Of a DNA stretch of 64,000 bases, positions 5,103-58,039 are shown one piece after another (within the stretch, counting starts at the first letter, position 1; each line of letters starts with the position of its first letter). Origin of the DNA: Acidimicrobiia bacterium (GTDB lineage Bacteria > Actinomycetota > Acidimicrobiia > Spongiisociales > ZC4RG35). The notes below the pieces were generated by a model. The model was not told where the DNA came from. It did not search any database and saw only the letters and a program-made list of their open reading frames with translations. Location of the stretch: the NCBI GenBank assembly GCA_035462175.1, contig DATHUP010000049.1, positions 52,614 through 116,613 of the forward strand. Reading direction: 5' to 3'. The position numbers and the translations under genes are program-made.

Positions 5103-5767
5103 GACCCGAGCTCGTCGTCTTCGATGTCAACGAGACCCTCCTCGACCTGTCGCCCCTGAGGATCGACTTCGAGGATGTTTTCGGAACCGCTGAGCCGTTG
5201 GGTGAGTGGTTCGCCCGGCTGCTGCATGGATCGCTGGTGTCCAACCACCTCGGGGACTACCGCGCTTTCGGCGTGATCGGGGTCGAGGCGCTGCTCCAGG
5301 TGGCGGAGCGACACGGTGTCGATCTCGACGAAGCCACCGCCACCGAAGTGGTCACCCGCCTCGCCATCCTGCCCGTCCATCTCGACGTGATTCCCGCCCT
5401 GGAGCGTCTCCTCGACGCCGGCTTCCGCACCGCCGCCCTGACCAACAGCAGCACGAAGGCCGCAAACGTCCAGATCGAGAATGCAGGGCTGCACACTTTC
5501 ATCCAACGCGTGGTGTCCGTAGAGGAGGTCGGCCGCTTCAAACCAGATCCTTCCACGTATCGACATGCGGCCCAGGTCATGGACGTCCAGATCGCCAGTT
5601 CCATGCTCGTCTCCGCGCACGACTGGGATGTCGCCGGGGCACTCCAGGCCGGAGCCGGGGCCGCGTTCATACGACGTCCCAGGCTGATGTGGAGCCTCCC
5701 AAGACCGATGCCGGACGTGACCGGGACCGACCTCACGGGAATCGCCGACCAGCTGATCGCCGGGTAG
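5099..5767 (+). CDS. HAD-superfamily hydrolase (haloacid dehalogenase type II-like)
   Basis: VFDVNETLLDL motif I; GTG start overlapping the upstream stop (GTGA); remainder of ORF 4760..5767. Confidence 0.55.
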   Translation: MRPELVVFDVNETLLDLSPLRIDFEDVFGTAEPLGEWFARLLHGSLVSNHLGDYRAFGVIGVEALLQVAERHGVDLDEATATEVVTRLAILPVHLDVIPALERLLDAGFRTAALTNSSTKAANVQIENAGLHTFIQRVVSVEEVGRFKPDPSTYRHAAQVMDVQIASSMLVSAHDWDVAGALQAGAGAAFIRRPRLMWSLPRPMPDVTGTDLTGIADQLIAG

Positions 5768-7890: not shown

Positions 7891-8930
7891 TCAAGGGGTG
7901 GTTGCAACGATGAGTTCGTCGAGCACTTCGGCGGGTGTCCTGTATGCGTGGGTCTTGCGGGGTCGCTGGTTGAGTTCGTCGGCGACGAGGTCGAGGTCGT
8001 TTTCGGTGAGTGGCGAGTAGTTGGCTCCTCGCGGGAAGTATTGGCGTAGGAGTCGGTTGGTGTTCTCGACGGTGCCCCGCTGCCAGGGGGAGTGTGGATC
8101 GCAGAAGTAGACGTCGATTCCGGTATCGACGGTGAACTGGGCGTGTTCTCCCATCTCGGACCCTTGATCCCAGGTGAGCGTTCTGGTGAGTGCTTGGGGA
8201 AGACTTCCGATCTTTCTGGCGATGGCATCTCGGACTGTTTCGGCACGACGGTTGTCGGGGAGGTGGAGCAGCATCACGAATCGGCTGGTCCGTTCGACGA
8301 GGACCCCTATCTGGGAGGCACCGTCTCGAGTTCCGATGATCAGGTCGCCTTCCCAGTGGCCGGGCACAGCCCGGTCGTCGACTTCGGCGGGTCGTTCCGA
8401 GATCATCACCATGTCTTTGAGCTTTCCCCGGCCTAGAACCCGGTAGCCACGGGGACGACGACGAGCCCGACCCGTGCGCAGAGCATGGCGCAACTCTCGG
8501 TCCAAACCGCCGCGACCCTGCAGATACAGCGACTTGTAGATGGTCTCGTGAGACACCCTCCAGTTTGGATCATCCGGATGTTCCAAGCGGAGCCTGCCCG
8601 CGATCTGCTGTGGCGACCAGCAGCGCCGAAGCCGGTGAGTCACCTCCGCGGCCAGCTCTGAGTTGGCCACCAGCTTCAACGGTTTCGGCCTCCGCGCCCG
8701 CTCTCCCGCAATCCGATGCGCCTTCCACGCCCCATACCGCTCCCGGCCACCATTACGAGCCACCTCCCGGCATATGGTCGAAGCCGGCCGACCCAACAGT
8801 CTCGCCGCCTCGCTCAACGACCGGTCGAACCGGATAGCCCTCTCGATCACATACCGCTCATCCCTCGACAACCGAGCACCAGCCACTCACTCCTCCAATC
8901 GCCGTTGCAACGATTGTTAGAACTTTTCGA
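7880..8930 (-). mobile_element. IS30-family insertion sequence (boundaries approximate)
   Basis: Contains a complete IS30 transposase; palindromic GTTGCAACGA motifs near both ends (~7901 and ~8905); sits next to a degenerate HNH gene. Confidence 0.7.
7891..8886 (-). CDS. IS30 family transposase (DDE)
   Basis: N-terminal HTH; HWEGDLI...DQGSEM...NTNRLLRQYFPRG catalytic DDE region typical of IS30. Confidence 0.85.
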   Translation of the reverse strand: MAGARLSRDERYVIERAIRFDRSLSEAARLLGRPASTICREVARNGGRERYGAWKAHRIAGERARRPKPLKLVANSELAAEVTHRLRRCWSPQQIAGRLRLEHPDDPNWRVSHETIYKSLYLQGRGGLDRELRHALRTGRARRRPRGYRVLGRGKLKDMVMISERPAEVDDRAVPGHWEGDLIIGTRDGASQIGVLVERTSRFVMLLHLPDNRRAETVRDAIARKIGSLPQALTRTLTWDQGSEMGEHAQFTVDTGIDVYFCDPHSPWQRGTVENTNRLLRQYFPRGANYSPLTENDLDLVADELNQRPRKTHAYRTPAEVLDELIVATTP

Positions 8931-11363: not shown

Positions 11364-11774
11364 GTGACTCTGGCCGACTATCTCCCGATCGGCATCATGT
11401 TCCTGCTGGCTGCCGGCTTCGTGGCGGTGTCCCTGATCGCGTCCCGATTGGTCCGTCCCGATCGGCCCACCGAGGCCAAGCTCGATCCTTACGAGAGCGG
11501 GATCGTTCCCGAGACCGAGCCGTCGCAACGCTTCCCGGTCAAGTTCTACCTGGTGGCGATGCTCTTCGTGATCTTCGACGTCGAGATCATCTTCCTCTTC
11601 GCCTGGGCCTCGATCTACGACCGGCTCGGCTGGTACGGAGTGGCGGCCATCCTCATCTTCACATTCTTCGTGGCCGAGACCCTGGCCTATGTCTGGAAAC
11701 GCGGCGCGCTGGATTGGAACGTGCACCGCCGCTCTCGCTACATCGCCGCCGACGCATCGGACGAAGCAGCCTGA
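11364..11774 (+). CDS. nuoA: NADH-quinone oxidoreductase subunit A (cluster 1)
   Basis: Three TM helices; conserved YESGI / FDVEIIF motifs. Confidence 0.85.
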
Positions 11775-14143: not shown

Positions 14144-14190
14144 TTCCTAATGCAGGGCGTCACGTATACGTGACGCGGTGCATAAAGAAT
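14144..14190. repeat. copy A of a ~47-bp nested palindromic element (TTCCTAATGCA-N3-CGTCACG-N4-CGTGACG-N3-TGCAT[TA]A[GA]GAA)
   Basis: Outer 11-bp and inner 7-8-bp inverted repeats; reverse complement of copy C (about 90% identity); lies between the nuoD stop and the stop of the minus-strand cassette. Confidence 0.75.
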
Positions 14191-15176
14191 CAACCGAACG
14201 GCGGCGTAGTTGTGGTCGGCACCGGATTGTCGTCGACCGGCGTCTCGTCCTCTTCGATCGTTGGAAACCCCGATGACGGAGGAGGTACCTCGGTCAGTCG
14301 GCCGTACTCGTCGTAGCGGGAGAGCTGGAGCGGATAGAGATTGGGGATGATCCGCCCGAACCTGTCTCGGTCAAAGGACACGGTGCCACTGTCGTATTGG
14401 ATCACACCGGCGCCCGGGTCGAACTCGACCTCCTCGTAGACATATGGCGGGAGGGATAGAAGTGGACGGCCGGCCTGATCGAACAGCAGCACGTCGACTG
14501 GATTCCCATCGAGGTCGTAGGCGTAGATGTTCTCCACCGGTGTGCCATCGGCGGTGACCAGACGGTCGAACCAGAATTCGACCGAAGGCTCCACGTAGTG
14601 GCTGGGGGTGTTCACCAACGTCGCCATCAGTCCGAGGCCTGCAGCAAGGGAGAACACGAACGAACCTGCCGTCGGAAGATGGATCCCGGGTCGGGTCAGG
14701 TCGCGCCACTTGTCGAGCCAGATGGAGAGCCACGTGGCGCCGGCGACCAGGGCCAGGCCAGTCAGGGAGCTGGAACCAAACCGGGGGATGGGAAAGTGGG
14801 TGAACGGGTCTTGGTAGTAGAGCAAAGCCCATGCGGTCACCAGCATCCACCCACGAATCCATATCCAGAACGGCCTGATCGAGGGCCAGTGGATGATCTC
14901 GCTCAACCGGATCGCCCATGCGTCGGCGCGTGCCCGCGCTGTCACCAGCAACCCGGGCGCGGGATGATCAATGTCCAGCCCCGCACTCTGCCGGAACTCG
15001 GCCACGAACGATTCCGGTGACCCGAGGATGGTCTCGACCTCCTCGTCCCCGAGCTCGGCGAGATGTGCTTCCAGATCCTGCACCACCTCCTCGCGATCCT
15101 CGGCGGCGAGGTCGGCGAGACCCTCGGCGACCCGCGCGAGATAGGCGGCTTTCGACGGTGACAACGTGATGCTCAT
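14190..15176 (-). CDS. PadR-associated membrane protein with N-terminal HAAS/DUF1700-like helical domain
   Basis: N-terminus (AAYLARVAEGLADLAAEDREEVVQDLEAHLAELGDEE...SPESFVAEF) matches the DUF1700/HAAS pattern found downstream of PadR regulators; about 4 TM helices; overlaps the padR stop. Confidence 0.5.
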   Translation of the reverse strand: MSITLSPSKAAYLARVAEGLADLAAEDREEVVQDLEAHLAELGDEEVETILGSPESFVAEFRQSAGLDIDHPAPGLLVTARARADAWAIRLSEIIHWPSIRPFWIWIRGWMLVTAWALLYYQDPFTHFPIPRFGSSSLTGLALVAGATWLSIWLDKWRDLTRPGIHLPTAGSFVFSLAAGLGLMATLVNTPSHYVEPSVEFWFDRLVTADGTPVENIYAYDLDGNPVDVLLFDQAGRPLLSLPPYVYEEVEFDPGAGVIQYDSGTVSFDRDRFGRIIPNLYPLQLSRYDEYGRLTEVPPPSSGFPTIEEDETPVDDNPVPTTTTPPFG

Positions 15177-15499
15177 TCCTCTTCTCCCTCGAGCAGTTGG
15201 TTCATGACCCCGGCGAAGTCGTGCCAGGTCTTCTTGGAGCGGTCCAACAGGTCGGTGCCGGCTCGGTTCAGCCCGTAGTACTTCCGCGCCGGGCCTTCCT
15301 CGGACGGAACCACCTCGGAGGTGAGGTATCCACCCCCGAAGAGGCGACGCAAGGTCCCGTAGACCGAAGCGTCTCCGACCTCGTCGAAGCCACTGACCCG
15401 AAGTTGTCGCACCAAGTCGTAGCCATAGGTGCGGCCCCGACTCAGAACGGCGAGCACCGCCGTGTCGAGCACCCCCTTGAGCAGCTGGGTCGAGTCCAT
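15173..15499 (-). CDS. PadR-family transcriptional regulator
   Basis: Winged HTH (LLKGVLDTAVLAVLSRGRTYGYDLVRQL...YGTLRRL) and PadR C-terminal helix; probable start at the MDSTQLLKG methionine (the ORF track extends to 15601). Confidence 0.75.
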   Translation of the reverse strand: MDSTQLLKGVLDTAVLAVLSRGRTYGYDLVRQLRVSGFDEVGDASVYGTLRRLFGGGYLTSEVVPSEEGPARKYYGLNRAGTDLLDRSKKTWHDFAGVMNQLLEGEEE

Positions 15500-15565
15500 T
15501 CGCACTCCAATCGTCGCTAGTGCGACTTGCACACTACCACGCAATACGGAGTAGTGATCGGTCAA

Positions 15566-15611
15566 TTCCGAATGCAGCCCGTCACGGATACGCGACGCCA
15601 TGCATTAGGAA
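15566..15611. promoter_or_regulatory. copy B of the nested palindromic element; candidate PadR autoregulatory operator
   Basis: TTCCGAATGCA-gcc-CGTCACG-gata-CGCGACG-cca-TGCATTAGGAA, about 65 nt upstream of the probable padR start and just downstream of the amidohydrolase stop. Confidence 0.5.
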
Positions 15612-15615
15612 TCGT

Positions 15616-17079
15616 CTACGGCCAGCCCTGGTGGTGGAGCCTGAACTCACGCACCTCCTCGCTCGTCGACGGTCCCCAGGTCATGGTGGGGACGAGGTGC
15701 TCGACCCGGGCCGCCTCGAGCTCGTCGACGGTGAATCCCACCGGCTCGGTGATGGGGTCGATCTGGTAGAGGCTGGCCGCGTTCCAGCCCAGGATCTTCG
15801 CTTTCATCCCCCGCGTGAGCTCGGGGTATCCATGGCGCTCGCGCAGGTCCGCCGGGATTTGGAAGGCGCGCAGGGCGTCGATCTGACCCTGGGGCGACCC
15901 GTAGAAGATGGAGTCGGTGCCCCAGAGCAGGTTGTCCTCCCCGACCGCCACCAACAGTTTGCCCAGGGCATGTGCCGCCTCGTCGGGACGACGGAGTAGG
16001 TGCCACCACGTCGACCCGATCTCGGCATACACGTTCTGCCCAGGGCCGACCCCGGCTCGTCGCAGCGAGTCGACCAGCCGGTTCACCCCGAGATGGGCGG
16101 TGTCCTCGGTGAAGGGACCCTCCCTCTGCGCCACCTCGAACCCGGAGTGGTAGACGACGAACCGTACATCGGGATGGTTTTTCGCCGCGGGGCCGACGTC
16201 CTCGGGCGACCCAAACCGGGTCTGGTCGGAGAGCCCCTTGTGCACGAACAGGATGGGCGCCCCGGATCCCGCCACTGCATCGAGGAACCGGTCTCCCACC
16301 GCGGGGAGGTCGGGGTCGTGGTCGTCGAGCCACCAGTGGATCCCCGAGGGGAAGTGGGTGAAGGTCTTCCAGCCGGAGATGGTGTTCTCGGCGACGGTCC
16401 GCTGCATCTCTTCCACCACCGATTCGATCGGGGCGGTCTGAGGAAGCGCAAGTGCGTTGACCAATACCCGTTCGTCGCCAGACAGCCCCTGCACCATCTG
16501 CCGGGTCTCCTCCATCACCTCGGGCGAGAGAGGGCTGCCTTCTGGGTGGATCGGCAGTCCGGAGAGGGCGACCATCGTGGTATCCGATCTGATGAAGATC
16601 TCCTCGAGGAAGTGGTTCATCGAGAAACACGCCCGGGGATCGTCCTCGTCCTCGCAGCGTGCCTGGGGGAAGTTCCGACCCCAGAACCAGTCGCCCCGGG
16701 TCGAGGGGTCCAGGTCGTATTCGAGGAGATGGCCCTGGACGTCGAAGACGAACTGAGTCGGGCCCAAGACGGCGCGGGCAGCGTCGGTGTCATGGCGGGA
16801 GGCCGGGTCGAACGGGTACCAGAGCCCGGGTTGGAGGCCGAGGGCGGAGGCCATGACGGAATCGATGGCAGCAAGTGAGACGGCGACGGCGGAGGCCGAG
16901 CGGAGGAACTCGCGTCGGCTCAGACCGGTGCGTCGGATGGCCTCGTCGATGCCGGCGCGGGCGGTCTTCTCCATCTCGCGGCGGACCGGTGTTATCTGCT
17001 CCGGCTCGTATTCGCCATTCGAGCACTGCCCGAAGGCGATGGGAAGGCCCGGGTCCTCGTCGCGCCACGATCGGGACAT
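15616..17079 (-). CDS. amidohydrolase-family (TIM-barrel metal-dependent hydrolase) protein with TAT signal
   Basis: Twin-arginine motif (SRREFLRSASAVAVSLAA) followed by amidohydrolase_2-like motifs (FVHKGL, VVYHSGFE, WGTDS). Confidence 0.65.
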   Translation of the reverse strand: MSRSWRDEDPGLPIAFGQCSNGEYEPEQITPVRREMEKTARAGIDEAIRRTGLSRREFLRSASAVAVSLAAIDSVMASALGLQPGLWYPFDPASRHDTDAARAVLGPTQFVFDVQGHLLEYDLDPSTRGDWFWGRNFPQARCEDEDDPRACFSMNHFLEEIFIRSDTTMVALSGLPIHPEGSPLSPEVMEETRQMVQGLSGDERVLVNALALPQTAPIESVVEEMQRTVAENTISGWKTFTHFPSGIHWWLDDHDPDLPAVGDRFLDAVAGSGAPILFVHKGLSDQTRFGSPEDVGPAAKNHPDVRFVVYHSGFEVAQREGPFTEDTAHLGVNRLVDSLRRAGVGPGQNVYAEIGSTWWHLLRRPDEAAHALGKLLVAVGEDNLLWGTDSIFYGSPQGQIDALRAFQIPADLRERHGYPELTRGMKAKILGWNAASLYQIDPITEPVGFTVDELEAARVEHLVPTMTWGPSTSEEVREFRLHHQGWP

Positions 17080-17849: not shown

Positions 17850-19159
17850 CGACGCCACTCGTTGTCACCAAGCGGATGACCGAGTTCCCCGCCGACTCGC
17901 ACAGCATCGACCGTTACGAGGCAACCGGCGGCTACGAGCAGGCCCGCCGCGCCCTGGGGATGACCCGGGACGAGCTGGTGGAGGAGATCAAGGCCTCGGG
18001 TCTTCTCGGGCGGGGCGGAGCCGCCTTCCCCGCCGGCCTCAAGTGGAGCTTTCTCGCCCCGGCCCGGCCCTCGTTCCTCGTGGTCAACGCCGACGAGTCG
18101 GAGCCGGGCACGTTCAAGGACCGCCAGTTGCTGGAACGAGACCCGCATCAGATGTTGGAGGGGGTGATGATCACCGCCATCGCCAACGAGGCGCACCACG
18201 CTTTCGTCTACATCCGTGGCGAGTACCCGAAGCCGGCTCGCCGGGTCCAGGCCGCAGTCGACGAGGCGTATGCCCGGGGGTATCTGGGAGGGGGGATCTT
18301 CGGCTCGGATTACGACCTGGATGTGATCGTCCACCTCGGAGCCGGCGCCTACATCTGCGGTGAGGAGACCGCCCTGATCAACAGTCTCGAAGGTCTCCGC
18401 GGCGAGCCGCGTCTCAAGCCGCCCTACTTCCCCGCGGCGAAGGGCCTCTACATGCAGCCCACCATCGTCAACAACGTCGAGACGGTGTCCAACCTGCCTC
18501 ACATCCTGGCGATGGGCGCCGAGGCCTACACCCAACTCGGTCACCCGGACGACACCGGGACCTTCCTCATCTCGGTCTCGGGTCATGTCAAGAAGCCGGG
18601 CAACTACGAGCTTCCCCACGGGATCACCTGGCGTCAGCTCATCTTCGACATTGCCGGGGGCATCGCCGGAGACCGGGAGTTGAAAGCGATCATCCCCGGC
18701 GGCGCCTCCGCGCCCTGGTTCGTCCCCGAGATCCACCTCGACGACCGGATCACCAAAGACGTCTGCGCCGAGGCGGGCTCGATGCTCGGGTCGGGTGCCG
18801 TAATCGTGATGGACGAGAACACCTGCATGGTGCGCGCTGCCGAGCGTCTGGTGCGTTTCTTCGCCCACGAGTCGTGCGGCCAATGCACCCCGTGCCGTGA
18901 GGGAACCACATGGATGGAGATGATCCTGCGCCGAATCGAGGAAGGTCAGGGGCGGGCCATCGATCTCGACCTCCTTCTCGACGTCTCCGACAACATCAGC
19001 GTCGGTCTCAACTGGCCCCCGAAGATGACCACCATCTGCCCCCTCGGCCCGTCGGCGGTGTCTCCGATCCTCGCCCTCCGCGACTACTTCCGCGACGAGG
19101 TCCAGGCCCACGTGGAATTGGGCGGATGTCCATTAGAACTGGCGAAGGCTGCAGTATGA
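17846..19159 (+). CDS. nuoF: NADH-quinone oxidoreductase subunit F (start uncertain: TTG 17846 or ATG 17876)
   Basis: 51-kDa subunit; NAD/FMN site GRGGAAFP, Fe-S site ESCGQCTPCREG. Confidence 0.85.
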   Translation: MTTPLVVTKRMTEFPADSHSIDRYEATGGYEQARRALGMTRDELVEEIKASGLLGRGGAAFPAGLKWSFLAPARPSFLVVNADESEPGTFKDRQLLERDPHQMLEGVMITAIANEAHHAFVYIRGEYPKPARRVQAAVDEAYARGYLGGGIFGSDYDLDVIVHLGAGAYICGEETALINSLEGLRGEPRLKPPYFPAAKGLYMQPTIVNNVETVSNLPHILAMGAEAYTQLGHPDDTGTFLISVSGHVKKPGNYELPHGITWRQLIFDIAGGIAGDRELKAIIPGGASAPWFVPEIHLDDRITKDVCAEAGSMLGSGAVIVMDENTCMVRAAERLVRFFAHESCGQCTPCREGTTWMEMILRRIEEGQGRAIDLDLLLDVSDNISVGLNWPPKMTTICPLGPSAVSPILALRDYFRDEVQAHVELGGCPLELAKAAV

Positions 19160-19315
19160 GCCTGACGCGAACCACTTCTGGGGGGACCACTACTTCTGGG
19201 GGGCGACCCCCAGACCCCCGCTCGCTCCGAGCCGTAAGTGCCAAGACATCACGGCGGCCAACCTCAGTGGTCGCGCCGGGCTGTGATCGCGAATGAGGCT
19301 CAAACCGTGAGCGAG

Positions 19316-22845: not shown

Positions 22846-23501
22846 TGGGTCTCATAGCAGAGCTGATCAGAGGTCTCCGGGTGACTGGTGGGACGATGCT
22901 CCGCACCATCGCGGGCTCTGGGTTGGTCACCACCGAGTACCCAAAGGAGATGCGGGTCAAGCCGCAGCGCTTCCACGGGCGTCATGTGCTCAACCGCTAC
23001 CCCGACGGCATGGAGAAGTGCATCGGCTGCGAGCTCTGTGCCGGGGCGTGCCCCGCCGACTGCATCTACGTGCGGGGGATGGACAACGACCCGGAGGCCC
23101 CGACCTCGCCGGGAGAGAGATTCGGCTACGTGTACGAGATCAACATGCTCCGTTGCATCTTCTGCGGTCTGTGTGTCGAGGCATGCCCCACCGAGGCGAT
23201 CACCATGACCCATCTCTTCGAGTTCTCCACCACCAACCGCGAGGACGCGGTCTACACCAAAGAGACGCTGCTCATGGAGCGGGACGGGACCGTGCCTCAC
23301 ATGTTCCCCGACGACGAGTTGGCCGATCTCGGCGAGCTCGACACCGCCGACGGGTGGATGCGGGCCACGGCCTCCTCGGGGGTCGCCGCCTACGAGGGGA
23401 CCCTGATGTGGCAGGGCACCCCCGGGCCGGCCGACTGGGCTCCCGAGCCCACCCAGGAGGAGCGAGACCGCAGGAGTGGTGAGGACGAGACCGATGGTTG
23501 A
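22846..23501 (+). CDS. nuoI: NADH-quinone oxidoreductase subunit I (with ~60-aa C-terminal extension)
   Basis: Two 4Fe-4S ferredoxin motifs (CIGCELCAGACP, CIFCGLCVEACP). Confidence 0.85.
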
Positions 23502-24018
23502 GGGCGTCCTCTTCGTCATAGCCGGGCTCGCCGCCCTGGCCGGGGCGGTGACCGTCGTGGTGGCGAGGAACCCGGTCTACTCGGCCGTGGGCCTGCTCGG
23601 CACCTTGTTCTCGGTGGCCGTGCTCTACGTGCTCCAGCTGGCCCACCTCGTGGCCGCGGTCCAGGTGATCGTCTACGCCGGAGCGGTGATGACCTTGTTC
23701 CTCTTCGTGATCATGCTCATCGGCGTGGACAAAGAGGAGACCCGGTCGGAGTCACTCCCGCTGCAGCGGATATGGGTCGGGATGTTGGCCGTGGGGATGA
23801 TCCTCTTCGCCGCCGGCGTCACCCTGTTCGGGGACTTCGAGTGGGTGCCGGCCGCCTCGGCGAGGTTCATCGAGAGCAACACCAACGGCACGATCCAGGC
23901 CATCGCCGAGCCCCTGTTCACCGATTGGGTGCTTGCCTTCGAAGCCACGGCGCTGCTCTTGACCATCGCCGCGGCGGCCGCCGTGGTGCTGGCCCAGTTC
24001 AAGAGAAAGCGATCCTGA
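23494..24018 (+). CDS. nuoJ: NADH-quinone oxidoreductase subunit J
   Basis: ND6-like; overlaps the nuoI end. Confidence 0.8.
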
Positions 24019-24320
24019 TGGTCCCGGTCGACTGGTACATGGGGCTGGCTGCTGCGCTGTTCCTCATCGGCGCCCTCGGCATGTTGCTCAGACGCAACGC
24101 ACTGGTCATGTTCATGTGCATCGAGCTGATGCTCAACGCAGTCAACCTGACCCTCATCTCGGCGGGCCGGGTCATGAACGACATCAACGGGCAGGTGGCG
24201 GTGTTCTTCATCCTGGTGGTTGCCGCCGCCGAGGTGGTGGTCGGCCTGGCCATCATCGTGGCCATCTTCCGCCGGCGCTCTACGGCCTCGGTAGACGAGT
24301 TGAGCGAGATGAGAGGCTGA
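24018..24320 (+). CDS. nuoK: NADH-quinone oxidoreductase subunit K
   Basis: ND4L-like, 100 aa, ATGA-type overlap with nuoJ. Confidence 0.85.
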
Positions 24321-24340
24321 TGATGCTTCGCATCATCAGC

Positions 24341-24413
24341 CGCTACGAGCGACGAGCCACGAGCCATGAGCCAGAAGCTCGTTGCTCGTTGCTCGTTGCT
24401 CGTTGCTCATTGC
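24341..24413. repeat. intercistronic heptamer-periodic hairpin repeat, copy R1 (GAGCNAC arm / GCTCGTT arm)
   Basis: Left arm cgctacgagcgacgagccacgagccatgagc, loop cagaa, right arm (gctcgtt)x4 gctcattgc; preceded by small hairpin tgatgc-ttc-gcatca; lies between nuoK and nuoL. Confidence 0.8.
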
Positions 24414-24426
24414 TGGAGGTCACAAC

Positions 24427-26310
24427 GTGACCGACTATCTCTGGCTGGTCATTGCCCTTCCGCTGGCCGGGTCTCTGTTCTTGCACTTTTTCGGGCGGTA
24501 TGTGCGCGAGCCGCTGAGTGGGTGGCTGGCCTCGGTGGCGATCGGGGGTGCGTTCGTCATCGCTGCTGTGGCGGCTTGGCCCTTCCTCGAGGGAGGTGAG
24601 GCGGCGAGCACGATCGCGCTCTGGGAGTGGATGCCCGCGATCGGGGCGTCATTCGAGCTGTTGTGGGACCCGCTGGCCGCACTGATGACCCTGGTCGTGA
24701 CCGGGGTGGGCACCCTGATCCACGTCTTCGCCATCGGCTACATGCACGGTGACGAGAGGTTCCATCGTTTCTTCACCTACCTCAACCTGTTCGCCGCCTC
24801 CATGCTCACCCTGGTCCTCGCCGGGAACTACGCCATGTTGTTCCTCGGCTGGGAGCTGGTCGGGCTCTGCTCCTACCTGCTCATCGGGTTCTGGTTCACC
24901 CGGCCCACCGCCTCCGCTGCGGCCAAGAAGGCCTTCGTCGTCAACCGGATCGGCGACTTCGGGTTCATGATCGGCTTGATGCTGGTCTTCGCCACCTTCG
25001 GCACGCTCTCCTTCGGCGACGTGTTCGAGAGAGCCGGCGCCGAGATGAGCAGCGGGCTGGCCACGGCCATCGGCCTGCTCTTCCTGCTCGGGGCGGCGGG
25101 CAAGTCGGCTCAGATCCCTCTCTACGTGTGGCTGCCCGACGCCATGGAGGGTCCCACCCCGGTGTCGGCCCTGATCCATGCCGCCACCATGGTCACCGCC
25201 GGCGTCTACGTGATCGCCCGCTCCGCCCCCATCTACGAGTTGACCCCGTTCGCCTCGACGGTGGTGGCCAGCGTCGGGGCCCTCACCGCGATTTGGGCCG
25301 CCTCGATCGCCCTGGCCCAGCGCGACATCAAGCGCGTCCTCGCCTACTCGACCATCTCCCAACTCGGGTTCATGTTCCTCGCAGTGGGCACCGCCGCCTA
25401 TGTGGCCGGAGTCTTCCACCTCATGACCCACGCCTTTTTCAAGGCCCTCCTCTTCCTCGGTGCCGGATCGGTGATCCATGCCATGAGCGACGAGCAGGAC
25501 ATGCACAAGATGGGTGGGTTGCGGCGCAGGATGCCGATCACCGCGGCCACGATGGGGATCGCCTCCCTGGCCCTGGCCGGGATCCCTCCCCTGGCCGGTT
25601 TCTGGTCCAAGGACGAGATCCTCGCCGCGGGTTTCGCCCGGGGCGGCTGGTACTACTTCCTCTGGGTCATCGGGCTGGTCACAGCCCTGCTCACCGCCTT
25701 CTACATCACGAGGTTGTGGGCCCTGGTCTTTCTCGGAGAGCCGCGCTGGGCCGAGGGCGCCCAACCGCACGAATCGCCAAGGGTGATGACACTCCCCCTC
25801 ATCGCATTGGCCGCACTCTCCGTGGTGGGTGGGTTGGTCAACACGCCGTTCCGCCTCACCCTGGAGCACTTCCTCGAGCCAAGCTTCGAGTTGGTCCATC
25901 TGCAGCACGCCCCTGACGACTGGGCGCTCCTGGGGATCTTGGCCGGTCTCTCCACCCTGGCCGCACTCGGCGGCGCCGCGGCTGGGTACCTGGCCTACAA
26001 CCGGCCGCCGGAGAGATGGAGACGGTTCGAGGATTCCTTCCAACCGCTCTGGGGGGCATGGGAGCAGGCGTACGGGGTCGACGATCTCTACGGGAGAGCC
26101 CTGGTCGCGCCCGGCCGGCGACTGGCCGAGATCGGTGCCTTCGACTTCGACGCCAGAGTGGTCGATGGGGCGGTCAACGGTGTGGGCCGCCTGGTCCGGG
26201 ACGTCGGCGAATGGGCCCGCCCCCTCCAGACCGGTTTCGTCCGAAACTACGGAGTGTTGTTCCTCGCAGGTGCCCTCGTGGTCATCACCTGGCTGGTGGC
26301 GGGCGGATGA
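24427..26310 (+). CDS. nuoL: NADH-quinone oxidoreductase subunit L
   Basis: ND5-like antiporter subunit; GTG start preceded by GGAGG (the ORF-track start at 24382 reads through the repeat and is rejected). Confidence 0.85.
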   Translation: MTDYLWLVIALPLAGSLFLHFFGRYVREPLSGWLASVAIGGAFVIAAVAAWPFLEGGEAASTIALWEWMPAIGASFELLWDPLAALMTLVVTGVGTLIHVFAIGYMHGDERFHRFFTYLNLFAASMLTLVLAGNYAMLFLGWELVGLCSYLLIGFWFTRPTASAAAKKAFVVNRIGDFGFMIGLMLVFATFGTLSFGDVFERAGAEMSSGLATAIGLLFLLGAAGKSAQIPLYVWLPDAMEGPTPVSALIHAATMVTAGVYVIARSAPIYELTPFASTVVASVGALTAIWAASIALAQRDIKRVLAYSTISQLGFMFLAVGTAAYVAGVFHLMTHAFFKALLFLGAGSVIHAMSDEQDMHKMGGLRRRMPITAATMGIASLALAGIPPLAGFWSKDEILAAGFARGGWYYFLWVIGLVTALLTAFYITRLWALVFLGEPRWAEGAQPHESPRVMTLPLIALAALSVVGGLVNTPFRLTLEHFLEPSFELVHLQHAPDDWALLGILAGLSTLAALGGAAAGYLAYNRPPERWRRFEDSFQPLWGAWEQAYGVDDLYGRALVAPGRRLAEIGAFDFDARVVDGAVNGVGRLVRDVGEWARPLQTGFVRNYGVLFLAGALVVITWLVAGG

Positions 26311-26321
26311 GCAAGCTCATC

Positions 26322-26392
26322 CGCCGTTCTACGTTTTACGTGTTACGTCCTACGTACGACGTAGGGCGTAGGACGTATGACGGGGCGACCGG
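26322..26392. repeat. intercistronic heptamer-periodic hairpin, TACG-type variant
   Basis: ttctacg ttttacg tgttacg tcctacg / tacgacg tagggcg taggacg tatgacg; arms complementary (tcctacg vs cgtagga); between nuoL and nuoM. Confidence 0.7.
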
Positions 26393-26401
26393 AGGTCGCC
26401 C

Positions 26402-27931
26402 ATGTTGACCGCCCTCGTGCTGGTGCCTGCGGTCAGCGCCTTGATCGTGGCGTTGGTGCCTTCGCGGAGGAGGGAGGTCCATCTCCCGCTCGGGATCGCC
26501 CTGTCGGTGATGCCGCTCGCCCTCGCCGGCTATCTGTTCTGGGTATTCGAGCCGGCGGCAGGGTTCCAATATGTCGACCGGGTGGCCTGGTACGAGCCAT
26601 GGGGGATCGACTGGTTCCTCGGTGTCGACGGGATCTCCCTGCCGATGGTCGCCCTTACCACCCTCTTCGTTCCCATCGCCCTCGCCGCCTCGACCTCGAT
26701 CACCACCCGGACCAAGGAGTTCGTGGTCTTCACGTTGTTGCTCGAGGCCGGTCTGATTGGGGCCTTCCTCGCCCTCGACCTGTTCCTCTTCTTCGTCTTC
26801 TTCGAGGCGATGCTGATCCCGATGTACTTCATCATCGGAATCTGGGGCTCGGAGCGTCGGGTCTACGCCGCGGTCAAGTTCTTCATCTACACCGCTTTCG
26901 GCTCCGCCCTGCTGCTGGCCGCGATCATCGGTCTCGCCCTGATCCATGCCACCGAGGAAGGTTTTGCCTCCTTCGCCCTGACCGACCTGGTCGGGCTCGA
27001 CCTCTCCGTCGGCGCGGAACGATGGCTCTTCGCCGCCTTCGCCATCGCCTTTGCCATCAAGGTCCCGCTCTTCCCGTTCCACACCTGGCTCCCCGATGCC
27101 CATGTCGAGGCGCCGACGGCCGGCTCGGTCCTGCTCGCCGCAGTCCTCCTGAAGCTGGGCACCTACGGCCTGCTTCGCTTCAACCTGGCGCTCTTCCCGG
27201 AGACCTCGGTCGACGCGGTTCCGATCATGGCCGCCCTCGCGGTGATCGGGATCATCTACGGGGCGGTGGTCGCCATCGTCCAGCCTGATCTCAAGAAGCT
27301 CGTCGCCTACTCCTCGGTCAGCCATCTCGGCTTCATCGTGCTCGGCACCTTCGCCCTGACCTCGGGGGGTTTACAGGGCGCGGTGATCCAGAACGTGAAC
27401 CACGGGCTGACCACCGGTGCCCTCTTCCTCCTGGTCGGGATGATCTACGACCGGAGACACACCAAGAAGATCGCCGACTTCGGAGGTCTGCAGAAGACAG
27501 TCCCCATGCTCGCCGGGTTCTTCCTCTTCATGGCTTTCGCCTCGATCGGGCTCCCCGGCCTGAATGGGTTCGTCGGGGAGTTCCTGGTCCTCATCGGGAG
27601 CTTCCCCACCCTCCCCGTCCCGACCGTCCTCGCCGCCTCCGGGGTGGTGCTCGCCGCCATCTACCTGCTCTGGGCCTACGAACGGGTCTTCACCGGTGTC
27701 CCCGACAACGAGGAGAACAAGGTCCTGTCCGACCTCTCACCCCGTGAGATCGCGGTCCTCGCACCCTTGGCCGTGTTGGTGCTCGTGATCGGGCTCTATC
27801 CCAACCTGCTCCTCGACAAGATCACGCCTTCGACCGAGGCCGTGCTCGACCACATCGAGGCGCAGACCGACTTCGTCGTTCCCGAACCGGGACGGATCGA
27901 CGAGGTCGTGATGATCGGAGGCGAAGGATGA
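26402..27931 (+). CDS. nuoM: NADH-quinone oxidoreductase subunit M
   Basis: ND4-like antiporter subunit. Confidence 0.9.
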   Translation: MLTALVLVPAVSALIVALVPSRRREVHLPLGIALSVMPLALAGYLFWVFEPAAGFQYVDRVAWYEPWGIDWFLGVDGISLPMVALTTLFVPIALAASTSITTRTKEFVVFTLLLEAGLIGAFLALDLFLFFVFFEAMLIPMYFIIGIWGSERRVYAAVKFFIYTAFGSALLLAAIIGLALIHATEEGFASFALTDLVGLDLSVGAERWLFAAFAIAFAIKVPLFPFHTWLPDAHVEAPTAGSVLLAAVLLKLGTYGLLRFNLALFPETSVDAVPIMAALAVIGIIYGAVVAIVQPDLKKLVAYSSVSHLGFIVLGTFALTSGGLQGAVIQNVNHGLTTGALFLLVGMIYDRRHTKKIADFGGLQKTVPMLAGFFLFMAFASIGLPGLNGFVGEFLVLIGSFPTLPVPTVLAASGVVLAAIYLLWAYERVFTGVPDNEENKVLSDLSPREIAVLAPLAVLVLVIGLYPNLLLDKITPSTEAVLDHIEAQTDFVVPEPGRIDEVVMIGGEG

Positions 27932-53629: not shown

Positions 53630-53687
53630 CGCCGCAGGCTAGGACCAGTCCCGGGGTTTTTCCCGATAGGACTTGGAGATTCCAAAC

Positions 53688-53716
53688 TTCGACCAGAAAC
53701 GACCTCTGCGTATACT
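53688..53716 (+). promoter_or_regulatory. putative sigma-A-type promoter for nuo cluster 2
   Basis: TTCGAC-17 nt-TATACT about 35 nt upstream of the nuoA2 ATG. Confidence 0.35.
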
Positions 53717-53750
53717 CGCCCGCGGTGCTGTCCTTTCCACCCGAAACGGT

Positions 53751-54116
53751 ATGACCCCATACTTCGAGAGTTACCTGACAGTCGGCGCATTCGCCGTTCT
53801 CGGGGCAGTCCTGGTGATGATGATGCTCGGCCTGGCCACGGTGCTGCGACCGACCAACCCCACGGCCACCAAGATGCTCACCTACGAGTGCGGGGTTGAC
53901 CCTGTCGGATCGGGGTGGAGCCAGAGCTACGTTCGCTACTACGTCTACGGGCTGCTATTTGTCATCTTCGACGTGGAGGCGGTCTTCATCTTTCCCTGGG
54001 CGATAGTGCTCGACCAGTTGGGCACGTTTGGCCTGGTGGAGATGTTCGTGTTCATCGCCATCCTCCTCCTTGGGCTGGTCTACGCGGTCCGCAAAGGAGT
54101 CCTGCGGTGGGAGTAG
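53751..54116 (+). CDS. nuoA: Nuo-like complex subunit A (cluster 2)
   Basis: YECGVDP / [12 protein letters not shown] motifs; 121 aa. Confidence 0.85.
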
Positions 54117-54604
54117 TCCAGAAGTTCGGGGCCCCGAAGCCGGTGACTTGGCTTCTCAACTGGTCCCGGAAGTACTCCCTCTGGCTGTTCCAGTTCGGTC
54201 TGGCCTGCTGTGCCATCGAGCTGATGGCAGCGTCTGGCCCCCGGTTCGACTTCATGCGCTTCGGGATCATCCCTCTTCCCGCCTCGCCCCGTCAGGCCGA
54301 TCTGATGGTCGTCGCCGGGACGGTCACCGACAAGATGGCTCCGGCCATTCGTCGTCTCTACGACCAGATGCCCGATCCCAAGTACGTCATCTCGATGGGG
54401 TCGTGCGCCAACTGCGGCGGCCCATATTGGGATTCCTACTCGGTGACCAAGGGAGTCGACCAGGTGATCCCGGTGGACGTGTACGTCCCGGGCTGTCCGC
54501 CTCGGCCCGAGGCATTGATGGACGGGATCGTGCTCCTCCAGAAGAAGATCCAGGGCGAAGACATCAAAGAGAAATGGAACCGGCGTGACCTCGAGCCCGT
54601 CTGA
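54107..54604 (+). CDS. nuoB: Nuo-like complex subunit B (cluster 2)
   Basis: [12 protein letters not shown]...GSCANCGG...PGCPPRP; GTG start with AAAGGAG RBS. Confidence 0.85.
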
Positions 54605-55229
54605 GACCGAGACGGCCGCCGTCCACCCGCTCCAGGAGTACGCCGATCGGGTTGCTGCCGCGGTAGGGGGCGATGGGACGGTGACCTTCGACACGGTCAA
54701 GATCAGGGTTCCCCTCGAGCGATGGGTCGATGCCCTGACCACGGCACGCGACGAGCTCGATCTCGTCTTCTTCTCTTGGCTCTCTGCAGTCGACTGGTCC
54801 TCCGAGGTCGAGGTGGGCGACCCTTTTCCCGAGCCGGTCGAAGATCGTCTCGAGCTCCTCGCCACCGTGGCCGATGTCAGCGAGGGGCGACGGGTGATCT
54901 TCTCCACCGATCTGGACAAGGAAACGCCTTCTGCACCCACCCTGATCGACGTGTACGCCGGGGCCAACTGGCACGAACGGGAAGCCCACGAGATGTTCGG
55001 GATCCATTTCGATGGTCATCCCAACCTGATCCACCTCTACTTGCCCGACCAGTTCCTGGGCAACCCGCTGCGAAAGAGCTATCCCCTTCTCAGCCGTGAG
55101 GTCAAGCCCTGGCCCGGCACGGTCGACGTCGAGGCGATGCCGGGCAGTGACGAAGGAACAGAGGACGAAGGAGCAGAGGGAGACGGGGCCGAGGCGGACG
55201 GGCCCTCCGAGGAGAACCCGGAGGCATGA
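54585..55229 (+). CDS. nuoC: Nuo-like complex subunit C (cluster 2), acidic C-terminal tail
   Basis: [18 protein letters not shown] motif. Confidence 0.85.
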
Positions 55230-55230
55230 C

Positions 55231-56421
55231 ATGGTGCTAGACCAGGATCTGGTCCGCCACCTCTCCGAGTCTTCGGTGTCGGTGGAGCTCGACACCGAGG
55301 ACATGACCCTCAACATCGGGCCCCAGCACCCGTCGACTCACGGCGTTCTCCGACTCAAGGCACGGGTGGACGGCGAACGCGCCTTCGACGTGCAACCGGT
55401 CATCGGCTACATGCATCGCGGCTACGAGAAGCTGTCGGAGGCGAGGACCTACCCCCAGATCACCACCCTCGTCAACCGCATCGACTGGGTGTCGGGTTAC
55501 GCCAACGAGATCCCCTTCATCGTCGCCGCCGAGAAGCTGCTCGGCGTCGAGGTGCCGGAGCGAGCCCAATACATCCGGCTCATCCTCACCGAAATGGCCC
55601 GGATCTCCTCCCACCTGGTCTTCATGGCGTCCTACCCGCTGGAGCTGGGGGCGGCCACCCCGCTCTTCTTCGCCCTGAGGGAGCGGGAGCGTGTGCTCGA
55701 CCTGCTCGAGGGTGTGACCGGTGGCAGGTTCCACCCGAACTTCAACCGGATCGGCGGGGTCAAGCCGGCGTACGGGTCGGGCTCGGCGACCCGGAAGGTG
55801 ATCCAAGACCTCCCTGCCGGGTTCCTCGCCGAGACCAGGGATGCGATGGACAAGGTGGTGGAGGCGGTGGACGAGCTGAATCAGCTGGTTGCCGACAACG
55901 AGATCATCGTGGCCCGGACCAAGGGGGTCGGGGTCCTGCCCCCCGAGGTGGCTGCCGCATACGGGGTCTCCGGGCCCAACCTCCGTGCCTCCGGAGTCGG
56001 GTTCGATCTGCGCAAGGTGGAGGACTACCTCCCCTACCACCTGTTCGACTTCGAGATCCCGACCGGGGAGAACGGCGACTGCTGGGATCGATGGCATGTC
56101 CGCCTCCTCGAGATTCGCCAGTCGGTGCGCATCGTCCAGCAGGCGATCGACGGCATCCCCTCCGGCCCGCTCCAGGCCAAGGTGCCCAAGGTGATCAAGG
56201 TGCCTCAGGGAGAGACCTATGTCCGGGCGGAGAACCCGAAGGGGGAGATGGGCTACTACCTGGTCTCCAACGGCAACCAGGGCCCCTACCGGCTGAAGAT
56301 CCGCTCCGCCAGCTTCTCCAACATCTCGATCCTTCCCTGGATCCTGGAGGGTGTCCTGGTCCCCGACATCATCGCCATCATGGGAAGTCTGGACTTCGTG
56401 TTGGGGGACGTGGACCGATGA
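55231..56421 (+). CDS. nuoD: Nuo-like complex subunit D (cluster 2)
   Basis: NIGPQHPSTHGVLRL...RSASFSN motifs; no N-terminal acidic extension, unlike cluster 1 NuoD. Confidence 0.9.
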   Translation: MVLDQDLVRHLSESSVSVELDTEDMTLNIGPQHPSTHGVLRLKARVDGERAFDVQPVIGYMHRGYEKLSEARTYPQITTLVNRIDWVSGYANEIPFIVAAEKLLGVEVPERAQYIRLILTEMARISSHLVFMASYPLELGAATPLFFALRERERVLDLLEGVTGGRFHPNFNRIGGVKPAYGSGSATRKVIQDLPAGFLAETRDAMDKVVEAVDELNQLVADNEIIVARTKGVGVLPPEVAAAYGVSGPNLRASGVGFDLRKVEDYLPYHLFDFEIPTGENGDCWDRWHVRLLEIRQSVRIVQQAIDGIPSGPLQAKVPKVIKVPQGETYVRAENPKGEMGYYLVSNGNQGPYRLKIRSASFSNISILPWILEGVLVPDIIAIMGSLDFVLGDVDR

Positions 56422-56439
56422 GTGCTCGCTTCGCTGATT

Positions 56440-56518
56440 TGGCTACGAGCTACGAGCCACGAGCAACGGGCCAGAGCGCGATTCTGGCTCGTCGCTCGTT
56501 GCCCGTTGCTCATCGCGT
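56440..56518. repeat. intercistronic heptamer-periodic hairpin repeat, copy R2
   Basis: gctacgagctacgagccacgagcaacgg / GCCAGAGCGCGattCTGGC apex / gctcgtcgctcgttgcccgttgctcatcgc; between nuoD2 and nuoH2. Confidence 0.8.
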
Positions 56519-56533
56519 CAGGAAGGACACCCA

Positions 56534-57538
56534 GTGTCCTTCCTGACCGAGCTGTTCTCCAACTTCTGGGTCTCTCTTGCCGGGAAGCTGCTCATCGTCG
56601 CTCTCATGATCCCGCTCGTGGGCATGGTCATCGGGTTCGCCGAGATGAAGCTCTCGGCCAAGATGCAGGCACGGGTCGGCCCCTACTTCGCCGGGGGACG
56701 CTGGGGCTGGGCACAGCTCATCGCCGACGGGGTCAAGTTCTTCCAGAAAGAGGATCTGATCCCCACCGAGGCGGATCGCCCGGTGTTCAAGCTGGCGCCT
56801 GTGCTGGTGCTGGTGAGCACGGTCGCCCTTCTGGTGGTGATCCCCTTTGGCCCGGACCTGATCTTCCGCGATCTCTCGGTCGGCATCTTCTACGCCCTCG
56901 CTATCTCCTCGCTGAGCACTGTCGGGATCCTGATGGCCGGCTGGTCGTCGGGCAACAAGTACTCGCTGATGGGTGGGCTCAGGGCCGCCGGACAGCTGAT
57001 CGCCTACGAGCTGCCCCTGGTGCTGGCCGTCGTGGGCGCGGTCATGCTGGCCGGGACCATGAGCATGTCCGGGATCGTCGAGGCCCAGATCGAGGCCGGG
57101 TACCCCTTTGTGGTACTCCAGTTCCTCGGCTTCGGGATCTTCCTGATCGCCGCCCTCGCCGAGCTGAGTCGGATCCCCTTCGACATGCCCATCGCCGAGT
57201 CGGAGCTGGTGATGGGATATCTGACCGAGTACTCGGGATTCCGTTTCCTGTTCTTCTTCCTGGCCGAGTTCGCCAATATGTTCACCCTGTCGGCGATCGC
57301 CGTGACCCTTTTCCTCGGCGGCTACTGGCTTCCCGGGATCCCCGAGGACGTCCTCGCCTATGCCGGTCCGGTGATCCTCATCGCCAAGACCTTCCTCCTC
57401 GTCTTTGTCATGATCTGGTTCCGCTGGACCTTCCCCCGGTTCCGAGAAGACCAGTTGCAGAGCATGGCCTGGAAGTGGTTGATCCCGATCGCCCTGGCCA
57501 ACATCCTCCTCACCGGAGCCTTCAAGGTGTACCTATGA
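56534..57538 (+). CDS. nuoH: Nuo-like complex subunit H (cluster 2)
   Basis: ND1-like; GTG start embedded in the palindrome gtcaggaaggacac-cca-gtgtccttcctgac. Confidence 0.9.
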   Translation: MSFLTELFSNFWVSLAGKLLIVALMIPLVGMVIGFAEMKLSAKMQARVGPYFAGGRWGWAQLIADGVKFFQKEDLIPTEADRPVFKLAPVLVLVSTVALLVVIPFGPDLIFRDLSVGIFYALAISSLSTVGILMAGWSSGNKYSLMGGLRAAGQLIAYELPLVLAVVGAVMLAGTMSMSGIVEAQIEAGYPFVVLQFLGFGIFLIAALAELSRIPFDMPIAESELVMGYLTEYSGFRFLFFFLAEFANMFTLSAIAVTLFLGGYWLPGIPEDVLAYAGPVILIAKTFLLVFVMIWFRWTFPRFREDQLQSMAWKWLIPIALANILLTGAFKVYL

Positions 57539-58035: not shown

Positions 58036-58039
58036 GAGC

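Follow-up and report, generated by a model that had tools for sequence, protein, structure and literature searches.

In a 64-kb stretch of contig DATHUP010000049.1 from an Acidimicrobiia bacterium (the window; GC content 65.6%), two NADH:quinone oxidoreductase (nuo) gene clusters were found, both on the + strand, and seven of their gene junctions are filled by palindromic inserts whose central hairpin is built from tandem arrays of complementary 7-nt units. Each insert is spanned by a short open reading frame (ORF), here called the relay ORF, which begins over the stop codon of the upstream gene and ends on, or a few nucleotides inside, the start of the downstream gene. With moderate confidence we propose that such a palindromic insert, prone to recombination and slippage, is tolerated only at junctions where translation of the neighboring genes stays coupled through a ribosome relay.

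The insert between nuoK and nuoL of cluster 1 (the K-L junction; other junctions are named likewise) has the following parts, which include its Shine-Dalgarno (SD) sequence:

24018 to 24320, + strand: nuoK of cluster 1, the upstream gene (Pfam PF00420, E = 2e-29), with its TGA stop at 24318-24320
24318 to 24338, + strand: 5' hairpin TGATGATGC-TTC-GCATCATCA of 9 bp, from the predicted fold
24320 to 24430, + strand: relay ORF of 36 codons, starting over the nuoK stop (TGATG), with its TGA stop over the nuoL start (GTGA)
24342 to 24372, + strand: left arm of the central hairpin, GCT followed by ACGAGCG ACGAGCC ACGAGCC ATGAGCC (Tandem Repeats Finder, TRF: period 7, 4.1 copies)
24373 to 24376, + strand: loop AGAA (5 nt, CAGAA, are unpaired in the predicted fold)
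24377 to 24414, + strand: right arm, GCTCGTT x4, GCTCATT and GCT (TRF: period 7, 5.4 copies, 96% matches)
24415 to 24419, + strand: SD sequence GGAGG of nuoL, read from the sequence, 7 nt upstream of the GTG start
24418 to 24432, + strand: SD/start-sequestering hairpin GGTCAC-AAC-GTGACC, which includes the last two SD bases and the nuoL GTG
24427 to 26310, + strand: nuoL of cluster 1, the downstream gene, with its GTG start at 24427 (Pfam PF00361 and PF00662; gene call)

An earlier sequence-only reading of this DNA had described a heptamer hairpin at this junction, preceded by a small hairpin and followed by an SD-sequestering palindrome. The heptamer hairpin is present, with arms of A[C/T]GAGCN x4 and GCTCGTT x4 plus GCTCATT, and both flanking structures can be read in the sequence. 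In the predicted fold, the central hairpin comprises 27 pairs over 24342-24406, arranged in 6-bp blocks with one mismatch per 7 nt (22-27 pairs among the elements of the window), and the 5' hairpin covers the nuoK stop together with the ATG codons of the relay ORF at 24320 and 24323. The predicted fold of the element has -79.9 kcal/mol (z = -9.9 relative to shuffled sequence). Six of the seven elements gave z between -9.9 and -2.5, while cluster 2 M-N reached only -1.3, with 20 of 200 shuffles as stable. The 14-mer GCTCGTTGCTCGTT was matched 26 times with at most 2 mismatches against 0.36 expected, and the hairpin pattern GAGCNNNGAGC..GCTCNNNGCTC 11 times against 0 expected. A second, independent assembly (Logan SRR9691058, L132) is identical at 2106 of 2109 positions over three elements, demonstrating that the elements are real and not an assembly artifact. 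The exact cluster 1 NuoK protein is in addition a gene call on the European Nucleotide Archive metagenome contig ERZ27272640 k141_368896, from which the window derives.

The sister copies in the window are:

26307 to 26408, + strand: cluster 1 L-M sister element in a 91-nt spacer (26311-26401), heptamers CGTNNTA / ACGTAGG, relay ORF of 33 codons from ATGA to ATGTTGA
56418 to 56546, + strand: cluster 2 D-H copy in a 112-nt spacer (56422-56533), 42-codon relay ORF ending 13 nt inside nuoH, SD and start covered by a 14-bp hairpin
58032 to 58142, + strand: cluster 2 I-J copy in a 103-nt spacer (58036-58138), 36-codon relay ORF from ATGA to GTGA
58687 to 58800, + strand: cluster 2 J-K copy in a 100-nt spacer (58691-58790), 37-codon relay ORF
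59093 to 59209, + strand: cluster 2 K-L copy in a 109-nt spacer (59097-59205), 38-codon relay ORF from GTGA to GTGA
62868 to 63005, + strand: cluster 2 M-N copy in a 130-nt spacer (62872-63001), 45-codon relay ORF from ATGA to GTGA

All seven copies lie between consecutive + strand nuo genes and have the same layout, namely a 5' module on the upstream stop, the heptamer hairpin and a 3' SD/start module. The repeat had been ascribed to both paralogous nuo operons, and it is indeed common to cluster 1 K-L and five junctions of cluster 2. Of the seven copies counted earlier, six share the ACGAGCN/GCTCGTT unit (spacer 24321-24426 and the five of cluster 2); the seventh, at cluster 1 L-M, is laid out in the same way with the different unit given above. 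At this L-M junction the 5' hairpin GGCGGATGAGC-AA-GCTCATCCGCC covers the nuoL stop codon, and the unit is similar to that of the GTTCTAG arrays which locus L049 carries at its orthologous junction.

Relay ORFs of 33-45 codons, which the sequence-only reading had missed, were found in 7/7 inserts of the window. All of them start over the upstream stop (ATGA in five cases, GTGA and TGATG in one each), while four end in GTGA over the downstream start and three run 7-13 nt into the next gene. A spacer length of 1 mod 3 is the exact condition for this geometry, and the 106-nt spacer of cluster 1 K-L as well as the six spacers listed above all have it. Loci of relatives (L042-L137) were retrieved via NuoK, by which the K-L junction is over-sampled, and examined over +/-10 kb, compared with 64 kb for the source genome; the closest NuoK relatives carry the label Acidimicrobiia. 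The frame statistics comprise 19 elements from five genomes, with the 'contig_' records L135 and L136 excluded. In these two records the nuoC, nuoD, nuoJ and nuoN calls are split, probably by assembly frameshift errors. The elements of the relatives likewise lie between consecutive + strand nuo genes, in spacers of 97, 109, 106, 100 and 103 nt (L133), 115 nt (L134), 67, 106 and 112 nt (L137), 109 nt (L128) and 112, 223 and 169 nt (L049). The spacer length was 1 mod 3 in 19/19 elements despite differing lengths and units.

The relay frame was set in advance by the ATGA/GTGA overlap, before stops were counted. Over the 19 elements, the frame of the upstream gene holds 18 stops, the following one 19 and the relay frame none; at cluster 1 K-L the relay frame is open and the other two + frames hold one stop each. 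Where the repeat unit itself contains a stop, the stop has been removed in one phase only. In the L-M array of L049, (GTTCTAG GTTCTAT GTTCTAG)n, TAT stands at each third, in-frame unit, which gives a 21-nt super-period. At J-K of L128 and L133 the in-frame unit reads TAC, and in the right arm of cluster 1 L-M (ACGTAGG GCGTAGG ACGTATG) the in-frame unit has TAT and the out-of-frame units TAG. At sites homologous to stop-bearing units, a stop was present in 0/13 cases in frame and in 41/49 cases out of frame (Fisher p = 2.4e-8). The super-period, with the stop lost only from the in-frame unit, would be the clearest trace of selection for coupling. In the ACGAGC type the perfect partner of the left-arm GCTACGA is TCGTAGC, as in Natronospira, which brings TAG into all frames; the window has TCGTTGC. 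Stop avoidance may also explain the periodic mismatch of the window hairpin.

The same counts bear on the idea of a neutral simple-sequence expansion, in which 7-nt slippage within a palindrome would build the arrays and open frames would follow from GC-rich, stop-poor sequence. In its favor, among tandem arrays of at least ~3.3 units in 710 kb (NuoK-centered loci plus window), 26 had period 7 and one any of the periods 4-6 and 8-12, and of the long simple repeats in bacteria, those with heptanucleotide units are the most frequent, which has been put down to slippage of the polymerase (Mrazek 2007, summarized in PMC4679880). Units that vary by lineage and site, as well as the dispensability of the inserts (see below), also fit. 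However, adding or removing a single unit moves the frame, and still every length is 1 mod 3; the other two frames hold 37 stops and the relay frame none. The phase-specific disarming of stops and the covariation of the SD hairpin are left unaccounted for as well, and we consider a purely neutral expansion highly unlikely.

In the predicted folds, a small terminal hairpin involving the SD and/or the start codon was present in every element. At J-K a stem of 9 bp is kept in four genomes, its loop holding the SD and its 3' strand the ATG; 4/9 pairs are changed on both sides, and 97% of the cells are paired compared with 12-50% for slid partners (4 sequences). Compensatory differences were also found at D-H (GGACAC/GTGTCC in the window vs GGTCAC/GTGACC in L133) and at K-L (GGTCAC/GTGACC vs GAGATCA/TGATCTC in L137), and these differences include the second codon (4 sequences per junction). 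An SD/start pairing that is kept by compensatory change, as expected of a coupling hairpin, is therefore seen with four sequences per junction.

The insert, an intercistronic element of Acidimicrobiia, consists of three modules. Its 5' module begins on the upstream stop (consensus TGAG-GCTCG-CTTCGC), its middle is the long imperfect hairpin, in which each arm is a tandem array of 7-nt units complementary to those of the other arm, and its 3' module supplies or reshapes the downstream SD and start and folds them into a small hairpin. The following mechanism is proposed. A ribosome ending at the upstream TGA would restart on the overlapping ATG or GTG, translate the relay ORF of 33-45 codons through the central hairpin, melt the SD/start hairpin and stop on or a few nucleotides inside the downstream start (GTGA, ATGA, ATGTTGA), where the next nuo gene would be initiated by the same or a newly recruited ribosome. 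Absent upstream translation, the downstream ribosome-binding site would remain sequestered. The relay peptide itself is probably meaningless, and the hairpin could contribute as an mRNA stabilizer or as a ribosome pause before membrane subunits, or could be a passenger.

The frame constraint appears to be the operon's own and not that of the repeat, since inserts lacking heptamers also carry relay ORFs, namely those at K-L in L042 (139 nt) and L044 (132 nt) and, in the window, the F-G gap of cluster 1:

19156 to 19296, + strand: ORF of the cluster 1 nuoF-nuoG spacer, 46 codons from an ATGA start, with its stop 10 nt before the nuoG GTG

This gap (19160-19306, 147 nt) is a relay-type spacer of non-heptamer sequence that folds at -74.8 kcal/mol.

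Several points weigh against a ribosome relay. The 19 elements are related by descent or conversion and not independent, so that the quoted p-values are optimistic, and stop-free 7-nt units are open in every frame, which makes the open frame of ACGAGCN/GCTCGTT alone weak evidence. A start over a stop is also seen in about 43% of the window's remaining genes, mostly owing to true gene overlaps. We infer the translation of the relay ORFs, and with it their presumed role in coupling, from sequence statistics, and a hairpin of about -40 kcal/mol or stronger within an ORF would slow ribosomes. Among the loci matched by a genome-contig search for the exact ACGAGC/GCTCGT hairpin (L001-L040), the same heptamer hairpin stands without a relay ORF in L005 and L024, and the right arms GCTCGTA of Natronospira put TAG in every frame. 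Heptamer hairpins at distant nuo K-L junctions (L072, L092, L094) are likewise stopped in all frames, which shows that the hairpin exists independently of the relay. No transposase turned up in the 64-kb window or the +/-10-kb loci, where no systematic search was made. The conserved heptapeptide ATSYELR / ARCSLLV was considered and discarded as evidence of translation, because a 7-nt repeat yields one and the same cyclic heptapeptide whichever of the three frames is read.

Some of these points would suit an untranslated structural RNA similar to REP/BIME palindromes, which as exonuclease barrier, processing site or initiation brake would set the amounts of membrane subunits, the open frame being a by-product. 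The folds are very stable in six of the seven elements (see above for the weak z of cluster 2 M-N), arm complementarity is kept whichever heptamer is used, and the element always stands between co-directional genes immediately before the SD. Moreover, 7/7 window copies precede genes for membrane subunits (H, J, K, L, M, N), and heptamer hairpins stopped in all frames occur at nuo junctions of other lineages. The association with membrane genes is confounded, however, as these genes all lie in the 3' half of the operon, and close relatives manage without the element. A structural RNA also leaves unexplained why 19/19 spacers are 1 mod 3, why no stop faces the 18 and 19 in the other frames and why TAG is turned into TAT or TAC in frame only. 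It does not conflict with the relay model, and both could hold together; as sole explanation we regard it as unlikely. In a comparison of strands meant to tell an RNA from a DNA element, fold energies of the sense and antisense strands were similar with no consistent winner, and 82 G-U pairs stand next to 15 A-C 1x1 mismatches, two counts that are not comparable. At gathering thresholds no Rfam family was matched in the whole window, and with E up to 10 the region 24280-24470 gave only microRNA precursor-like models that scored no more than 28 bits, their thresholds being 60-140 bits.

For cluster 2, many NuoK relatives exist at 94-96% identity, and their junctions are either filled or empty. 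In L122-L127 (NuoK 95-96% identical) the genes overlap by 4 nt at D-H, H-I and I-J and by 1 nt at J-K, and the K-L junction reads TAGGGATG, with a 2-nt gap and no insert. L128-L130 have a NuoK identical to that of L125-L127, yet carry a 109-nt insert, at K-L only, with a GTTCTAG-like / CCACCNC-like heptamer pair. L133 (NuoK 96% identical) has inserts at the window's five junctions with the same 5' and 3' modules, but at D-H, J-K and K-L it carries cores of the CGGTATT/ACCGANT type instead of the ACGAGC type. The K-L core of L134 is of the ACGAGC type and the cores of L137 are of the CCGCNNN/GCGGATC type. At the K-L junction of cluster 2, four unrelated self-complementary heptamer pairs are thus present in four lineages. 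The NuoL N-terminus differs between alleles: the empty site encodes MTWVVATEAE, the window VTSVLATEAE and L128 MSRLQILATEAE; from this difference it follows that the insert supplies the SD and the start codon. At I-J, comparison of filled and empty alleles revealed a clean insertion between two (A/G)TGAG copies (ATGAG, GTGAG).

Since close relatives do with directly overlapping genes, the insert is dispensable; it is also polymorphic and of modular build, with a hairpin core that turns over far more quickly than the modules on either side. Cores were presumably generated by slippage and conversion, and their turnover most likely combines replication slippage by 7 nt with recombination or conversion among the copies. 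The spread of a mobile or recombinogenic element, which the sequence-only reading had offered as one possibility, agrees with the empty junctions in relatives, the K-L-only insert of one lineage and the differing central heptamers. The 5' module ATGAG-GCTCG-CTTCGC-TGA... (56419-56445) resembles the nuoJ start of the empty site, ATGAGCTTCGCTGACTGG (L125, 5450-5470), and a duplication at the I-J junction may have given rise to the element family. In addition, the module has the look of a decayed GCTCGTT array. A scan of viral contigs gave 2 matches, one by chance and one a terminator-like heptamer hairpin, and no sign of phage carriage.

The other possibility offered there was selection at the K-L junction specifically, where subunits L, M and N might need a different translation level. 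In its favor, K-L is filled in all element-bearing lineages seen (window clusters 1 and 2, L133, L134, L137, L128, L049), it is the sole filled junction in L128-L130, and heptamer hairpins also stand at K-L of the distant L072, L092, L094 and L116. Retrieval of the loci via NuoK over-samples K-L, however, and the comparison of copies spoke against it: arms and loop of cluster 1 K-L are 78% identical to cluster 2 K-L, compared with 82% for cluster 2 D-H and 79% for I-J, so that the same-junction affinity expected of a position-specific function is missing. Both K-L copies of the window do have the 3' module GGAGGTCAC-NAA-GTGACC in common (84%), but GGTCAC-NAA-GTGACC occurs in L133 at D-H, K-L and M-N, which makes it a family module paired with the GTG-ACC start and not a K-L feature. 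The same element occupies D-H, I-J, J-K and M-N. Among the metagenomic relatives of cluster 1 NuoK (59-70), junctions typically overlap by 1 or 4 nt at J-K and are separated by about 2 nt at K-L, where most gaps measure 0-10 nt; inserts of more than 40 nt were found at K-L in 9/59 and at J-K in 8/70, about equally often. As the geometry of the element moreover keeps coupling instead of breaking it, a K-L-specific function was rejected and must be rated as most improbable.

Because 7 is not a multiple of 3, a change by one unit would displace the relay stop from the downstream start, and the element could in principle be a frame-sensitive switch (contingency locus) in which gain or loss of one heptamer would uncouple all downstream genes. 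As a translation-gated attenuator, the hairpin would instead act as a terminator without U-tract unless a ribosome translating the relay melts it. Unit numbers that vary among orthologous copies and GC-rich hairpins inside an operon are in line with these ideas. Against them, the 'on' frame is kept in 19/19 alleles, lengths agree between the two near-identical assemblies, and no T-run follows any hairpin. We therefore consider a switch or attenuator very unlikely. The candidate of an intrinsic terminator was dismissed, as a scan of 23400-27000 gave no site at the elements, where an SD and start and not a T-run come after the hairpins; a promoter scan of the same region revealed nothing at the elements either. 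That heptamer-armed relay cassettes with an exchangeable hairpin core form a distinct, undescribed element class, serving as a frame-sensitive switch that selects a complex I isoform or as a ribosome-timed pause between membrane subunits, is in our view quite unlikely; if true, the switch would amount to heritable, reversible control over which of two complex I isoforms is made.

The heptamer principle extends beyond this operon. At least ten unrelated units were counted in the 710-kb sample, among them ACGAGCN, CGGTATN, GTTCTAG, CCGCGAT, TACGTAN, AAACGGG, GTACCCA, CAGACCT, ACTGACT, ATTGCCG and AGTTTTC. When 185,579 species genomes were scanned, the exact ACGAGC/GCTCGT hairpin came up at 40 loci in many phyla. 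Carriers are Acidimicrobiia, Thermomicrobiales/Chloroflexota (with perfect arms GCAA[C/T]GA in Thermomicrobiales), Natronospira (5 loci), Halomonas, Lacipirellulaceae, Trueperaceae, Shewanella benthica, Pseudoalteromonas, Paraflavitalea, Bacteroidota, Acidobacteriota and others. These distant hairpins stand mostly between co-directional genes, just ahead of the SD. They separate unrelated genes, for example lepA from a radical-SAM gene or metG from rnfA, and the element is therefore not nuo-specific. The recurrence across phyla may reflect transfer, convergence or chance among many unit families. With at least ten heptamer families in so small a sample, horizontal spread of one element is weakened as an explanation, and chance recurrence is at least as likely.

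In the lepA/radical-SAM case (L034, 6880-7000, minus strand) the hairpin lies in frame as an N-terminal extension behind a GTGA overlap, and between metG and rnfA of Natronospira (L015, 5670-5840) a 55-codon ORF runs from ATGA to ATGA. Heptamer hairpins at distant nuoK-nuoL junctions (NuoK 51-60% identical; L092 4304-4390, L094 1709-1795, L116 3209-3278, L072 337-440) have the units AGTTTTC / CTGAAAA or AGGTTTC / CCTGACA; all their frames are stopped, and they abut the ATG with no obvious SD.

With regard to known repeats, the element is nearest to mycobacterial interspersed repetitive units (MIRUs) in function, to REP-like palindromes in structure and to heptanucleotide repeats (STRR, TAACTGA) in sequence organization. 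MIRUs are units of 46-101 bp, often in tandem and without marked dyad symmetry. As summarized in PMC12548453, they insert at start codons and have an internal ORF coupled at -4 nt spacing (Supply et al. 1997). The likeness covers short repeats in intercistronic gaps of operons, an actinobacterial lineage, insertion at the start codon, a small ORF overlapping both neighbors at -4 nt with expression barely disturbed, and polymorphism between strains. Here too the elements are intercistronic along the direction of transcription, with a small ORF that overlaps the upstream stop and the downstream start. In contrast to MIRUs, there is a single cassette with a hairpin core of complementary 7-nt arrays, an SD/start hairpin and an interchangeable core unit, and the host belongs to the Acidimicrobiia. 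Judged by its architecture on inspection, the element would be a MIRU analogue and not a member.

Repetitive extragenic palindromes (REP), bacterial interspersed mosaic elements (BIME) and enterobacterial repetitive intergenic consensus (ERIC) sequences of proteobacteria resemble it as multicopy imperfect palindromic hairpins that are frequent between co-transcribed genes, and six copies of one type with stable imperfect hairpins were found in the 64 kb. REP-type palindromes stabilize upstream mRNA and can depress translation near a stop codon, and REPs have a conserved GTAG/CTAC foot recognized by RAYT transposases. The right arm GCTCGTT is devoid of GTAG, and REP/BIME differ in having neither a 7-nt periodicity nor a relay ORF or frame conservation. 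Rickettsia palindromic elements (RPE) sit in protein-coding genes as in-frame peptide insertions and similarly survive as palindromic repeats in translated sequence by means of an open frame. Unlike RPE, the present elements stand between genes with their own start and stop, although L034 does show the geometry of an in-frame N-terminal extension.

Cyanobacterial short tandemly repeated repetitive (STRR) sequences are heptanucleotide simple repeats. At 24345-24414, TRF detected at least three head-to-tail 7-nt copies, above chance, as in such simple sequence repeats. TAACTGA repeats occur in Beggiatoaceae, Cyanobacteria and Bacteroidetes upstream of start codons (PMC4679880). Long simple sequence repeats and TAACTGA share with the element the tandem 7-nt units, a mostly intergenic position often just before a start, a patchy phylogeny and a proposed origin by slippage. 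TAACTGA repeats are direct arrays, with a single inverted case in 170 sets, and have stops in three frames (PMC4679880), whereas here complementary arrays form a hairpin and one frame is open. The right-arm AAACTGA of the distant K-L hairpins is one base off TAACTGA (PMC4679880). Classical hairpin coupling (PMC12548453) likewise involves a paired SD and start, an ATGA/GTGA overlap and initiation that depends on upstream translation; here the genes are not adjacent, and coupling would be relayed over ~100 nt by an extra, repeat-borne ORF. In the literature consulted, no prior description of heptamer-armed hairpins, or of relay ORFs outside MIRUs, was found.

If a ribosome relay is at work, this would be the second independent repeat, after MIRUs, that colonizes operon junctions via its own coupling ORF. 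In a stoichiometric membrane complex, selection for translational coupling would then be strong enough to mold the detailed sequence of an insert that is selfish or derived from slippage. For annotation it would mean that gaps of ~100 nt in Acidimicrobiia operons are not simply untranslated and that some starts and N-termini are supplied by inserts. The elements would further offer a testable handle on the dominance of 7-nt units among bacterial simple repeats and on the behavior of heptamers as paired hairpins, and for synthetic biology a natural library of relay cassettes akin to bicistronic designs with strong internal structure.

Concerning the gene clusters themselves, the cluster 1 genes confirmed by Pfam are nuoJ (23476-24018), nuoK (24018-24320), nuoL (24427-26310) and nuoM (26402-27931); those of cluster 2 are nuoD, H, I, J, K and L. 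Cluster 1 had been taken for a single 14-gene operon, which does not hold: three opposite-strand genes (HAAS-domain, PadR, Amidohydro_2) at 14190-17079 split it between nuoD and nuoE, so that it forms at least two transcription units. Cluster 2 (53670-64000) has the order A-B-C-D-H-I-J-K-L-M-N without nuoE, F and G, and this order together with a flanking phosphodiesterase gene is kept in many Acidimicrobiia contigs.

Further arrays were noticed at two other loci. In L027 (5017-5466), an Actinomycetota metagenome-assembled genome, ~450 nt of CGAGCAA-type heptamers lie between aminotransferase and molybdopterin oxidoreductase genes and are open over 169 codons (LLVARCS repeated), with an ATCAGCT x6 array close by. 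L050 (NuoK 75% identical) has arrays in nuo spacers at 5280-5480, 8170-8320 and 11470-11517, some of them nested, with the units AAACGGG, GTACCCA, CAGACCT and sequences like CCCCAGT, the cyanobacterial STRR1 unit.

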